From contig OZ024743.1 of the NCBI GenBank assembly GCA_964016885.1, positions 327,484,001-327,548,000 of the forward strand: DNA of 64,000 nt, read 5' to 3'. The stretch comes from Eledone cirrhosa. Its lineage: Eukaryota. The position numbers and the translations under genes were made by a program. Positions 5,662 to 45,865 of this stretch are shown one piece after another (position 1 is the first letter of the stretch; every line of letters starts with the position of its first letter). The notes beneath the pieces are model-generated. The model searched no databases, had not been told where the DNA came from, and saw only the letters and a program-made list of their open reading frames with translations.

Positions 5662-8643
5662 TGACGAAATCCATGGAGGCTATGGGTTTGGTACTAGAAA
5701 TGAGGAAGGCTCCAGAATCCTGGAATTCTGCGACGCAAATAACCTAACTATCTGCAATACTAACTTCAAAAAACGAGACAATCACTTGATCACCTACAGA
5801 TCAGGGGAACATACTAGCCAGGTAGATTATATCCTTACCAGAAGACGTGACAAAGTGACCGCCGTAAACACTAAATCCCTCCCCCATGAAGAATGCACTT
5901 CCCAACATAGACTGATAATTAGCGACCTAATAGTCAGGACGAGACGTACTAGACAACAGAAGAGGACTATCCTCAGGAGAAAAATATGGAAGCTAAAATA
6001 AATTCCAATTAAAAACAGCCAAAAATAAATTCCAAAGCATATTACTTGATGCTTTCGACAGTGAGGAAGAGCAATTAGAGATGTACAAGGTAGAGGAACA
6101 GTGGGAATTCCTGAAAGCAAACCTGCTGACGGCGGCAGACGAAGTCTGTGGCTGGAGCAGGCCTGTAGGCAGGAGGAGAGTAACATGGTGGTGGAACAGT
6201 AAGGTGGAGGGGTCAATTAAGGCCAAAAAGCAGGCTTGGAAAGTATGGCGGGATGGGGGAAGCAGAGAAGACTATCAAGTGGCCAGGAGGGAAGCTAGGA
6301 GACAAGTGTACTTCGCAAGAAGGGAAGCAGAGGAAAGAAAGTTCAAGCATGTTCTACAACGCGAGGACCAAAAACGTGAGGTGTTCAGGATTGCTAGGCA
6401 ATGTGTCAAGGAAAACAGTGATATTGTCGGGGAGAAGTGTGTACTTAACGATGACGGCATACTTGCCATCACCGACGCCGATAAGAAGGTAGCTTGGAAG
6501 TGTCACTATGAAAGGCTACTAAATGAGGAGAATAAATGGGAGAAAGACAGTCTCCCCCACATCGACCCAATAGAGGGACCAGCAGTGTTAGTCGAGGGTA
6601 GTATAATAAGTAAGGCAATCAAAGATATGAAGACAGGCAAGGCGGCTGGGCCTTCGGAAATAGTTGCCGAGATGCTGAAGGCATCTGGTATGGTGGGACA
6701 CACCATGGTCACCCGGATAGTCAACCAAGTCATACAGAATGGGGTTGTTCCGAAGGACTGGCGCAGCAGCATTATCGTTAACTGTTATAAGGGTAAAGGA
6801 GATGCCCTAGATAGAAGTAACTATAGAGGCATTAAATTAATCGACCAGGTCATGAAGGTCACGGAAAAAGTTATAGCGCAACTAATCAGAGAGCGAATTG
6901 ATCTAGATGAAATGCAGTTCGGGTTTGTGTCAGGAAAAAGTACCACAGACGCTCTTTTCATTGTACGACAACTACAGGAGAAGTACTTAGCTAAAAGTAA
7001 ACCCCTATACTTAGCTTTTGTCGACTTGGAGAAGGCCTTCGACAGAGTCCCCCGTTCCATTATCTGGTGGGCTCTTAGAAAACTAGGTGTTGATGAATGG
7101 CTTGTGAGAGCTATACAAGCCATGTATAAAGAAACAGTCAGCAAGGTTAGAATTAACAACGAATATAGTGAAGAGTTTAGTGTAAAAGTTGGTGTTCATC
7201 AGGGCTCTGTTCTTAGCCCCCTACTATTTATTATTGCCCTTCAGGCTATAACAGAGGAGTTCAAGACCGGCTTCCCATGGGAACTCCTATACGCAGATGA
7301 TCTAACGCTCATAGCTGAATCAATGGCCGAGCTAGAGAAGAAATTCCAAACATGGAAGCACGGCCTAGAATCAAAAGGCCTTAAAATTAACCTAGCTAAG
7401 ACTAAAGTTCTAGTTTGTAAGAAAGAAAATAAGGCGGCGGTCCCCTCCGGGAAGTGGCCATGCGCAGAGTGTAGGAAAGGCGTAGGTAGAAATTCCATTT
7501 TGTGTCCCAAATGCAAAGTTTGGGTGCATAAAAGATGTAGTGGGATCACAGGTAAGCTAACTAAGAACATAGATTTTACATGTGGCCGGTGTTCTGGGGA
7601 AATAAGTAGCAGCAAGTGCCCACAAAATACTAGCTCTTTCAACTGCGCAGAGGGTTCTATAGAAATAGTGGACAGCTTCCGTTACCTGGGTGACAAAATC
7701 AGCAGTGGGGGAGGGTGCTCTGAAAGTACAGTAGCTAGAGTCAGAACTGGGTGGAAAAAGTTCAGAGAGCTTATACCACTATTAGCCGCTAAAGGGTTTT
7801 CCCTAAAAATGAAAGGCAGGTTGTACGATGCCTGCATACGAACAGCAATGTTGCATGGCAGTGAGACCTGGGCATTGTATGCAGAGGATATACGCAGACA
7901 AGAGAGAAACGAAGCTTGCATGCTCCGCTGGATGTGTAATAGTAATATACGTGAACGACAAAGCATAAACGAACTAAGGAAAAAATTAGAAATAAGAGGG
8001 ATCAGATGTTGTTTACTAGAGAGAAGGCTACATTGGTATGGTCACGTGATGCGCATGAAGGACGATAGCTGTATAACAAAGTGCAGGGCAATAAAGATAG
8101 ACGGTAGCCACGGAATAGGCAGACCCAGAAAAACCTGGGACGAGCTGATAAACTCCGACCTCACACACTTACACCTCACCAAGACAATGTCACTGGACCG
8201 AGACCTTTGGCGGTACTCAGTAATAGAGAAGACCCGCCTTACCTAAATACAAAGTAAAACCTACTACAGTCAGTAGGCATCTCTAACAAAATACACCCCC
8301 GTCCCACCACCCCCACCCCATCCACACCGCCCCCTTCTATGTAAAGTTATGTTGGTGCCACACCATCCAGGCCGAAACAAATGAGATCGTGTAGGTGTCA
8401 CGACAAAAAAACACACAGTCCACGCTGTAATGTGGCCGTGTAGGCAACACGGTAAAAACCTCCCAGACCCACACTGTAAATGTGGTTGGTGTTAGGAAGG
8501 GCATCCAACTGTAGAAAACCTGCCAGACAGTCCTATGCGAGCAAGACAATCACTCTTGCCTCAAGTGGGACTACCCCCGTCCAAACCCATGCAAGCGTGG
8601 AACACGGACGTTAAACGTTGATGATGATGATGATGATGATGAT
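5662..8643 (+). mobile_element. RTE-clade LINE, 5'-truncated within the APE endonuclease, with 3' UTR and (GAT)n tail
   Basis: Endonuclease C-half (NTNFKK...SQVDYIL...SQHRL) at 5662-6001; long RT ORF; tail GTTAAACGTT(GAT)n; starts directly after a (TA)n tract. Confidence 0.95.
6081..8246 (+). CDS. RTE reverse transcriptase with PHD-type zinc finger (721-aa uninterrupted part of the polyprotein)
   Basis: NYRGIKL, QFGF, FVDLEKAFDRV, GVHQGSVLSPLLF, YADD, FRYLG, RRLHWYGHV; Cys4-His-Cys3 pattern CAEC..CPKC..HKRC..CGRC after the RT. Confidence 0.93.
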   Translation: MYKVEEQWEFLKANLLTAADEVCGWSRPVGRRRVTWWWNSKVEGSIKAKKQAWKVWRDGGSREDYQVARREARRQVYFARREAEERKFKHVLQREDQKREVFRIARQCVKENSDIVGEKCVLNDDGILAITDADKKVAWKCHYERLLNEENKWEKDSLPHIDPIEGPAVLVEGSIISKAIKDMKTGKAAGPSEIVAEMLKASGMVGHTMVTRIVNQVIQNGVVPKDWRSSIIVNCYKGKGDALDRSNYRGIKLIDQVMKVTEKVIAQLIRERIDLDEMQFGFVSGKSTTDALFIVRQLQEKYLAKSKPLYLAFVDLEKAFDRVPRSIIWWALRKLGVDEWLVRAIQAMYKETVSKVRINNEYSEEFSVKVGVHQGSVLSPLLFIIALQAITEEFKTGFPWELLYADDLTLIAESMAELEKKFQTWKHGLESKGLKINLAKTKVLVCKKENKAAVPSGKWPCAECRKGVGRNSILCPKCKVWVHKRCSGITGKLTKNIDFTCGRCSGEISSSKCPQNTSSFNCAEGSIEIVDSFRYLGDKISSGGGCSESTVARVRTGWKKFRELIPLLAAKGFSLKMKGRLYDACIRTAMLHGSETWALYAEDIRRQERNEACMLRWMCNSNIRERQSINELRKKLEIRGIRCCLLERRLHWYGHVMRMKDDSCITKCRAIKIDGSHGIGRPRKTWDELINSDLTHLHLTKTMSLDRDLWRYSVIEKTRLT

Positions 8644-9210
8644 ATAATAGAATATAAAAGAAAAGCGAACACAGATATATAGATATATGTGTTCAAATCG
8701 TAAGGGACCTTATTCGCTAAAGTGAAAAGAATACTAACTATAGACAATTGGGTTCGCTTGTCTCAATTTAAGAAAAAATTAAGAAGTGTTGTGAGTTTAT
8801 GAGACTCGCTAGGAAGCCATGTGCACTGTTTTATTATTTCTTATATATAGCATACATAGATGTGTCTAGGATACTAATTCATCACCCACTGATGAGCTTG
8901 GATTAGTATTTCTATTCACAATTTATTTTGCGAAACAACAAGTTGTCTGGGTGGTTGGTAGTTACCACAATTCCGGTTTGTATTTTCTTAATTTTTTCTT
9001 AAATTGAGACAAGCAAACCCTATTGTCTATAGTTAGTATTCTTTTCACCTTAGCGAATCCGTTCTCTTACGATTTGAACACATATATCTATATATCTGTG
9101 TTCGCTTTTCTTTTATATTCTATTATAATATACGGCTCAGAAATATCTCTTTCTTAGAGTTATTTTTTTGTAAGAGACTATTTTGAGTTCCTAACTCAAT
9201 ATATACATTT
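8643..9210 (+). mobile_element. Non-autonomous Penelope-like fold-back element: ~142-bp inverted arms (8643-8785 / 8985-9127), hammerhead in the spacer, ~83-nt unpaired tail
   Basis: Arms are reverse complements with a few mismatches; hammerhead core lies between them; ends in (TA)n. Confidence 0.75.
8883..8953 (+). ncRNA. Type I hammerhead ribozyme
   Basis: Stem I CACCCA/TGGGTG; CTGATGA core; stem II closed by GC/GC; GAAA; stem III CAAC-AA-GTTG; GTC cleavage triplet at 8945-8947. Confidence 0.85.
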
Positions 9211-9233
9211 AATATATATATATGTATGTATGT

Positions 9234-9308
9234 AAAAGGTAAACAGAAATAACAACACAATCAATACAGTATATGGAGGGGATATATTAGGTTAACGCTT
9301 GATATAGC
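9234..9308 (-). mobile_element. 3' terminal fragment of the Neptune-type PLE family
   Basis: Near-identical to 45897-45973 (AAAAGGTAAACAGAAA...TTAGGTTAACGCTTG). Confidence 0.8.
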
Positions 9309-45108: not shown

Positions 45109-45173
45109 TATTTTGTCTGATGACGGCATACCATAATTTAACTTGGTATCCTTGAAATATATATAATGAAATA
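45109..45173 (+). ncRNA. Hammerhead ribozyme in the 3' pLTR
   Basis: Same as the 5' copy except A>C at the first stem II position (CTGATGA-CGGC). Confidence 0.75.
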
Positions 45174-45685
45174 AATATGGTTTTATAAATATAGTTTCCA
45201 TTTATTAATATTGTATATATATATATATATATATGGTCAGTAGTTCGTGTGTAAGTATATATATATATATATATATATATATATGGTCAGTAGTTCGTGT
45301 GTAAGTATATATATATATATATGCTTGTGTGTCTGTGTCTATATATGTATATTTGCATGCATAAATAAATACACTAAGCTTTAGATTTAGTAGAATGCAC
45401 AACCACTGATTTCAGTATCGTATATTTTGGTTTCTAGTAATTCCCTGGCAATTGGTTGACCAAATGCTTTTCTTAATTGTTTTATTTATTTTTTTCTCTT
45501 AGATTTCAGGTATTTTTTGAAAGCAAAGCATTGGCCCCTAAAATTCTAGTGGGACCTGCAATGCTACTGTGGTCCCCGTGGTGCCCATTTGCCATTGGGC
45601 AACCTGGAAAACTGGCCAGTCCGCCACTGATCAAACTACTTAATGTGGTTACCCTCGATTCAACCCGGGATATATATATATATAT

Positions 45686-45865
45686 ATAGGAACCAGTAAG
45701 ACCCCGACGGCTGAGCTCAAGCCGTTTCGACGGCTAATTCCGTCGAAACGGCTTGAGCTCTGCCGTCGGGGTCTTACTGGTTCCTATTACCCACTCTACT
45801 ACCCTAAGTATTGAGTACTTTGGTGCGTTATGGTCCACCTGGTTCCTTACCACATTTCCTTCGTT
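45686..45865 (+). mobile_element. Short PLE-like fold-back remnant: 48-bp arms (45686-45733 / 45740-45787), 3' half of a hammerhead, 78-nt tail
   Basis: 47 of 48 positions paired; right arm has GAAA-CGGC...GCCG-TC (stem III and GTC) but no CTGANGA; flanked by (TA)n. Confidence 0.7.

Follow-up and report, generated by a model that had tools for sequence, protein, structure and literature searches.

Paired ends and a duplicated putative start module in head-to-head Hydra-clade Penelope-like insertions at (TA)n tracts of Eledone cirrhosa

A stretch of 64,000 nucleotides (nt) from Eledone cirrhosa (assembly GCA_964016885.1, contig OZ024743.1, positions 327,484,001 to 327,548,000, forward strand), here called the window, carries three short hairpin elements, A, B and C, and one intact Penelope-like element (PLE). 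We consider it probable that these hairpins are head-to-head insertions of PLEs of the Hydra clade whose ends are set by twin modules, the reverse transcriptase (RT) priming two cDNAs of one RNA from the nicked strands of a (TA)n tract. The families have fixed outer ends that pair one of each kind, variable fold points and mirrored arms, and a start module that is duplicated and shows covariation; from these sequence features we infer the mechanism.

The window was searched for inverted arms together with a hammerhead descriptor, and all genome-wide counts are exact probe matches in the 3.0-Gb genome. The arms lie at 8643-8785/8985-9127 in A (143 nt, 95% identity), 39985-40150/40161-40326 in B (166 nt, 99%), 45686-45733/45740-45787 in C (48 nt, 98%) and 40815-41185/44857-45221 in the PLE (97%), and the four elements showed no significant sequence similarity to one another. 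A sequence-only reading of the window had credited them with inverted arms, tails of about 83 (A), 86 (B), 78 (C) and 91 nt (PLE), a short arm stopping at a TA word and a full or partial hammerhead, all of which was confirmed, the TA word in four of four elements. Its statement that three of the four merge into (TA)n also held: the tract adjoins B, C and the PLE, and the short arm of the window copy of A borders (GAT)n. The type I hammerhead descriptor hit four sites (A 8889-8947, +; B 40229-40283, +, and 40082-40028, -; PLE 40919-40871, -) and none in any of 20 shuffles of the window, while C retains only the 3' half of the ribozyme. Rfam found no hammerhead in the window, giving only sub-cut-off microRNA (miRNA) matches driven by microsatellites.

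Fixed outer ends, variable folds and mirrored arms

Matches ranked by likeness to the window copies suggested fixed hairpins, and loci were then resampled by position. The distal end of C fell within 5 nt in 90 of 90 tail-selected loci; 67 of these had an adjacent inverted arm, starting exactly at -78 from the distal end in 59. For B, an inverted arm was present in 44 of 70 loci (start at -77 to -83 in 40 of the 44), and for the PLE in 17 of 30 (-87 to -92 in 15 of the 17). The separation of the two outer ends is constant within families, at 78-92 nt, and a TA run was found at the distal end in 88/90 loci of C, 65/70 of B, 30/30 of the PLE and 27/30 of A. Seven of the eight start sites share at least 3 nt with (TA)n, the chance per site being 0.10-0.30.

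The two kinds of end are paired one of each. The internal C junction joined to (TA)n gave 17,741 genome-wide matches, and among 50 loci chosen by this junction 42 were paired with a distal end and none with a second internal end, the remainder having no partner in the locus (six) or being interrupted (two). Distal-distal pairing of C occurred in 2 of 67 matches, both in one element. Restriction-site-associated DNA (RAD) Illumina reads of other individuals, from a separate study, also show the internal end joined to (TA)n, with 2,596-2,907 such reads in each run for C and 5,673-6,488 for the PLE; the depth is shaped by restriction sites, and strand-switch joints are present as well. The hairpins are real and no assembly artefact, a doubt that the earlier reading had raised itself. 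Its proposal of a recurring two-primer mechanism gains support from the fixed paired ends, its TA microhomology agrees with the sharing at the start sites, and the tail lengths, for which it had allowed a random origin, follow the fixed spacing. As to identical fold-back junctions recurring at many loci, the outer ends recur and the fold points do not.

The fold points of C indeed gave 55 distinct junctions in 61 position-selected loci. The left arm was longer in 30 of these, the right in 22, and both were equal in nine; five pairs did not overlap at all. In long copies the open reading frame (ORF) may sit in either arm, and the long right arms with a visible partner both had long left arms (p 0.005, with a tiny n). 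Arms of one insertion tend to carry the same subfamily variants: in 58 C loci, 58 variants were mirrored and seven not (permutation mean 21, maximum 35), and in the 25 usable of 60 PLE loci 89 were mirrored and ten not (permutation mean 27), with 29 against eight for the rarer variants (permutation mean 2.6). Private changes are mostly unmirrored, as expected from later mutation.

Many arms end at a sharp wall. In C, 92 of 151 arm ends lie within -143 to -130 and two in the adjoining 14 nt; in B, 34 of 110 lie at -254/-255, and read depth in independent reads falls about 30-fold at the wall. The walls of B and C both finish at the A of a TCA word, which we take to resemble an initiator. No clear peak of arm ends was seen at the hammerhead cleavage site (4/151 in C). 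The wall would correspond to run-off at the 5' end of the transcript; a promoter inside the pseudo long terminal repeat (pLTR) is known from Penelope, with regulatory sequences near its tail repeat (PMC2377424). In the C parent (L331:3298-3400) the wall lies inside the loop of hammerhead stem II, so an RNA starting there would have no ribozyme core, and self-cleavage would come only from read-through RNA.

The duplicated putative start module

Each start site is followed by a small bulged stem-loop. The module consists of a TA word, 2-6 nt, a 4-bp stem (GCUC/GAGC or ACUC/GAGU), a 2-nt 3' bulge, a variable inner stem and then ACU/GCU. In the four window families a module follows each of the eight start sites at 2-6 nt, and the module spacing of about 78 (C), 90 (B), 86 (A) and 92 nt (PLE) matches the tails, so that the duplication of the stem-loop would explain the tail length. 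In three internal copies the outer pair has changed from G-C to A-U.

For a wider comparison, 77 related metagenome loci were collected, whose proteins are 33-39% identical to the query; the 51 matching to the protein start were used and one duplicate was dropped, leaving 50 leaders. The module occurs at least once in 44 of these and twice in 26, with a spacing of 55-79 nt, while 101,959 nt of ORF sequence contain it six times. The TA word stands directly 5' of the module in 56 of 68 instances and on the 3' side in 24 of 72. Pairs were counted by script in 64 distinct inner segments (from 66 of the 68 instances) and compared with 2,000 shuffles in which relatedness was not modelled: with a bulge of 2 nt, inner pairs one to three are kept in 63/64, 43/59 and 29/35, against shuffle maxima of 57, 35 and 23. 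The first inner pair is C-G in 42 and U-A in 20 cases, and with a bulge of 0, 1 or 3 nt no inner-pair signal was found. A 7-mer word shared by the tails was considered as the signal and rejected, being present in only 2 of 51 distant leaders.

In the fetched genome loci the module descriptor gave 342 matches in 22 clusters; it matched neither of two Neptune-like leaders, and Rfam had no match on five related loci bearing the module. Published Hydra consensus sequences contain the module, one of them with both copies before the ATG. (TA)n ends 6-13 nt before the module in four distant loci. In L471, L477, L497 and L515, the ORF unit has (TA)n at its 5' end, directly ahead of a module or of the leader, which suggests that the TA word also serves 5' attachment. 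Neither the module nor the one-of-each rule was found in the literature searched, which reached neither the bioRxiv supplements nor the supplementary figures of the anole paper discussed below. Both the twin module and the finding that an ORF-less hammerhead repeat carries it appear to be new, the architecture itself being known.

The elements of the window and their parents

The features of the window that bear on these elements are as follows.

8643..9215, +: element A, a tandem hammerhead repeat with a 492-nt unit and no ORF, inserted head to head (by arm alignment and unit structure)
8643-8785 and 8786-9215: inverted short arm of A; its sense arm with tail
8881..8955, +: type I hammerhead of A in full minimal form, with its core at 8889-8947 (by descriptor; core kept in most copies)
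9135..9160, +: start module 1 of A, a bulged stem-loop that directly follows the internal TA word on its 3' side
39985..40414, +: element B, a pLTR fragment in head-to-head arrangement, assigned to a second autonomous Hydra PLE
39985-40150: inverted arm of B; the fold, at 40159, coincides with the hot spot of arm ends in this family
40221..40291, +: hammerhead of B in full minimal form, its stem II long and its stem III a palindrome; minus-strand mirror at 40082-40028
40334..40358, +: start module 1 of B
40507..40714, -: element Y, solo (TA)n-bounded arm of a further family; start module 40588-40611
40728..41185, -: inverted arm of the PLE, made up of the pLTR and a tail of 91 nt; it contains the hammerhead (40919-40871) and start module 1 (40796-40815)
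41213..41230, +: start module 2 of the PLE, lying 3' of the distal TA word (41204-41208) and 5' of the ATG
41252..43450, +: PLE ORF, uninterrupted, 732 amino acids (aa), assigned to the Hydra clade: RT, then C-terminal GIY-YIG
44857..45218, +: pLTR at the 3' end of the PLE; it stops at the internal TA word, within (TA)n
45686..45865, +: element C, head-to-head pLTR fragment assigned to a third autonomous Hydra PLE
45686-45733 and 45740-45772: inverted arm of C; 3' half hammerhead, with a 78-nt tail
45793..45816, +: start module 1 of C
2553..2579, +: start module belonging to element Z, a relative of Y; a (TA)n tract follows after about 95 nt

The intact PLE had been labelled a Naiad in the sequence-only reading. 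Naiads are defined by an N-terminal GIY-YIG before the RT, a DKA motif and the presence of CCHH (PMC8557442), and this identity is ruled out by an RT that precedes the C-terminal endonuclease and by DKT in place of DKA. Diagnostic of the Hydra clade are a single ORF with RT and then C-terminal GIY-YIG, RWK-like and DKT motifs, CxCx5C, CxxC and CxH, and no CCHH (PMC8557442). The window ORF shows DKT at aa 118, the RT core YRDD at aa 352 and an endonuclease region beyond aa 590; RWR, DKT, CxCx5C, CxxC and CxH are found in both the window protein and that of the C parent, and CCHH in neither. Among 120 homologs, 104 have an RWR-like motif, 100 DKT, 97 CxCx5C and 106 CxxC...CxH, with DKG in seven. 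Pfam gave one spurious sub-threshold match on the window and the PDB none; among eukaryotes, named homologs of the PLE protein come only from Argonauta. A hammerhead in the pLTR and insertion at (TA)n are present in the window PLE and the C parent, and the related locus L488 carries the hammerhead region listed for Penelope-1_NV, a Hydra member (PMC8557442 supplement). By motifs and the domain order derived from them, the window PLE is a Hydra-clade element. It shares with the published clade, which has an Octopus member in its supplement, the domain order, the RWK/DKT/CxCx5C/CxxC/CxH motifs without CCHH, the pLTR hammerhead and the (TA)n targets; in contrast to that account, the families here reach thousands to about 20,000 probe matches, have tails of 78-92 instead of 30-40 nt, and bear a duplicated start module not described in the passages and supplement parts consulted (PMC8557442). 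Since the internally primed arm of the PLE covers the whole unit and 25 nt of the preceding tail, no sense pLTR stands upstream of its ORF.

Long copies of C enter a second Hydra ORF, with a 786-aa frame in L331 that is 40% identical to the window protein. The hammerhead of the C parent is complete and folds accordingly; its core carries a U3-A8 variant, which hammerheads tolerate. Long copies of B enter a third Hydra ORF: in L337 and L340-L344 the B pLTR is preceded by ORF pieces with 38-61% identity to the window protein, and in L058 the B tail reads into the ORF start, with no intact copy of the B parent among the loci examined. Judged by these continuations, B and C are truncated ends of two further autonomous Hydra PLEs. 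The tail probes matched 19,665 times for C, 4,871 for the PLE, 1,068 for B and 494 for A. The genome probably holds some ten thousand or more short hairpins of one family; a repeat annotation could take them for miniature inverted-repeat transposable elements (MITEs) or miRNA precursors. Most C copies end inside the ribozyme.

Element A is of another kind. Its 492-nt unit is repeated head to tail with one type I hammerhead per unit and a longest stop-free frame of 68 aa, and all 30 junction loci fetched (of 31 matches) run into another unit, none into an ORF. By this structure A is a non-LTR retrozyme-like element, an ORF-less tandem hammerhead repeat. The retrozyme-like non-coding element suggested in the earlier reading is supported for A. 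Its class of non-coding hairpin-ribozyme elements is not supported for B and C, in which no ORF-less tandem unit with a complete hammerhead was found; they belong to ORF-bearing units and are PLE ends with junctions made anew. A has the same two outer ends as the other families, keeps the hammerhead core in most copies and bears both start modules without any ORF. Its arms cross the cleavage site and the unit junction and show no wall, which fits a circular RNA or an uncleaved multimer. It likely uses a Hydra PLE enzyme for its insertion. With known non-LTR retrozymes (PMC7229834; bioRxiv 10.64898/2026.07.22.740005) A shares the low-GC, ORF-less tandem repeat with one type I hammerhead per unit, and it differs from them in its unit of 492 nt, in having at most about two units per arm, and in a PLE-type two-start inverted insertion with both modules. 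Li et al. 2026 argued that retrozymes derive from PLEs (bioRxiv 10.64898/2026.07.22.740005).

Mechanism, alternatives and neighbouring sequences

In the favoured mechanism, each module would dock one RT, probably of a dimer, with the TA word pairing to the nicked target, and each of the two RTs would be primed by one nicked strand of (TA)n. Both cDNAs would run toward the 5' end of the RNA, the distal one displacing the internal one where they overlap, and the tail would be the spacing between the modules. In B and C, most cDNAs would run off at a pLTR-internal start and leave short dead-on-arrival hairpins, while read-through tandem RNAs would give long arms such as the ORF-bearing arm of the window. 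The 3' ends of the cDNAs would be joined by short microhomology or brief snap-back synthesis, and A would be mobilised in trans from multimeric or circular RNA. We lean, with less assurance, to the broader view that the tandem bulged stem-loops dock two RTs and that any RNA with the pair, A for example, may insert into (TA)n, which would make the pair a cis-signal for the mobilisation of retrozymes by PLEs.

Several observations weigh against this mechanism. No adjacent inverted arm was seen in 23 of the 90 C loci, the distal start of B shares only 2 nt with (TA)n, and among the distant leaders six of 50 lack the module and 18 have one copy. The seven window sites of the module descriptor (Y and Z included), compared with 0.06 in shuffles, were obtained with a descriptor tuned on the window's own sites. 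Mirroring gives a weak signal in B, with 8 variants against 9 (permutation mean 2.3), and could be followed in only three loci of A; moreover, mirroring as such fits one RNA, two RNAs of one source locus or subfamilies active in turn, and cannot separate them. As the C wall lies in a structured ribozyme loop, stalling of the RT there is possible. A parent PLE of A was not found by blastn or tblastn, and the starts of the anole PLE have no homology to the target (PMC11167929). Finally, templated snap-back inserts are present in some joints.

Joints with 1-5 nt microhomology or templated inserts, which are frequent, would also be produced by a single primer, where one cDNA or an antisense template folds back and the copy joins (TA)n at the internal TA word; mirrored arms follow directly, antisense-template self-priming has been proposed for rotifer PLEs (PMC3846280), and snap-back of cDNA is seen with R2 (PMC11371274). 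We hold this for very unlikely, given the five of 61 C pairs that share no sequence, the tail-less arm being longer in 30 of 61, sometimes with the whole ORF, and an internal end with its own conserved module. Snap-back may finish the joint but cannot build both arms, and as the sole route a single primer is already contradicted by the non-overlapping arms. Hardly credible to us is a self-propagating non-coding class in which a hairpin master is transcribed and copied whole. The exact C fold of the window did recur in 24 of 30 aligned best matches, and the best 40 matches of B were full length; however, these samples were ranked by likeness to the window copy, whereas position-selected loci give the 55 distinct junctions in 61, the identical C fold is found in four or more subfamily backgrounds, longer copies of B and C run on into Hydra ORFs, and C minis have no ribozyme core.

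It is also conceivable, though unlikely, that two primers act on two RNAs of one locus and that the module serves another step, such as DNA recognition by the endonuclease, a promoter or RNA processing. Recognition by the Drosophila endonuclease required the DNA of the tail (cited in PMC11167929), the tail repeat of Penelope has regulatory sequences nearby (PMC2377424), and mirroring is no proof of one molecule. On the other hand, compensatory pairs in a bulged stem speak for a fold of a single strand, and the 2-6 nt spacing and one-of-each pairing better suit two docking sites on one template than independent particles.

The twin-module mechanism thus preferred has relatives among known systems. 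In twin priming of L1, cDNAs are primed from both strands of the target, which leaves an inversion whose joint has microhomology; here, in contrast, the second primer site would be fixed by the template element, and the arms usually overlap to form a hairpin. An inverted 5'-truncated copy with a tail of 30-40 nt is the standard PLE insertion unit (PMC8557442, PMC3846280), and head-to-head arms, a tail at one end, palindrome or microhomology at the fold and initiator-like pLTR words are shared with it, whereas two primers account better than antisense self-priming for arms that do not overlap and for the one-of-each pairing, and most copies here are tiny and end at a sharp wall (PMC3846280). 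Closest is the Poseidon element PAc of the green anole, for which Frangieh et al. 2024 (PMC11167929) linked the tail to a pair of RT starts that have no homology to the target, inversions not being addressed in the parts consulted. In vitro, both strands were nicked and extended from two internal starts that bound the tail; sequence 3' of the starts was required and a dimer predicted. The PAc starts lie in the ORF, while here TA words in the leader, each with its own stem-loop, would be used one per strand (PMC11167929).

PLEs are the sister group of telomerase RTs, and the origin of their tails and inverted arms is an open question (PMC8557442); if the mechanism is true, one rule would cover both. 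Mobilisation of animal retrozymes by PLEs has so far been argued from co-occurrence and phylogeny (bioRxiv 10.64898/2026.07.22.740005), whereas the modules of A would be a direct footprint. A short covarying twin element shared with an ORF-less hammerhead repeat makes both questions reducible to mutagenesis tests, and the module descriptor could find Hydra elements and passengers missed by protein search.

Some further observations concern the TA tracts and the surroundings. Besides Y, Z (about 2520-2655) is a second (TA)n-ended solo arm, the two representing related families, each with a start module. The same TA tracts often hold nested minis of A, B, C and the PLE (L336, L334, L345 and L350), so that the tracts act as sinks that receive insertions again and again. 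Around B and the PLE, a 21-nt word stands between (TA)n runs in four copies (39941-39961, 40468-40488, 45235-45255 and 45285-45305) and may be a target duplication spanning an interrupted TA tract; no such duplicated word was found in 54 C loci, none of which was informative for the target-site duplication test. Broken pieces of a canonical (Neptune-like) PLE with DKG and CCHH-type motifs lie at 46534-48549 (-) of the window and at L339:3195-5518. Judged by ORF translations only, other retroelements of the window (5546-8246, 17587-20742, 21492-27261 and 11668-12351) comprise two RTE-like copies, one L1/Tx1-like copy and R4/Dong-like fragments. At 58885-59164 there is a nested, AT-rich, imperfect inverted repeat without relation to (TA)n, possibly a MITE.

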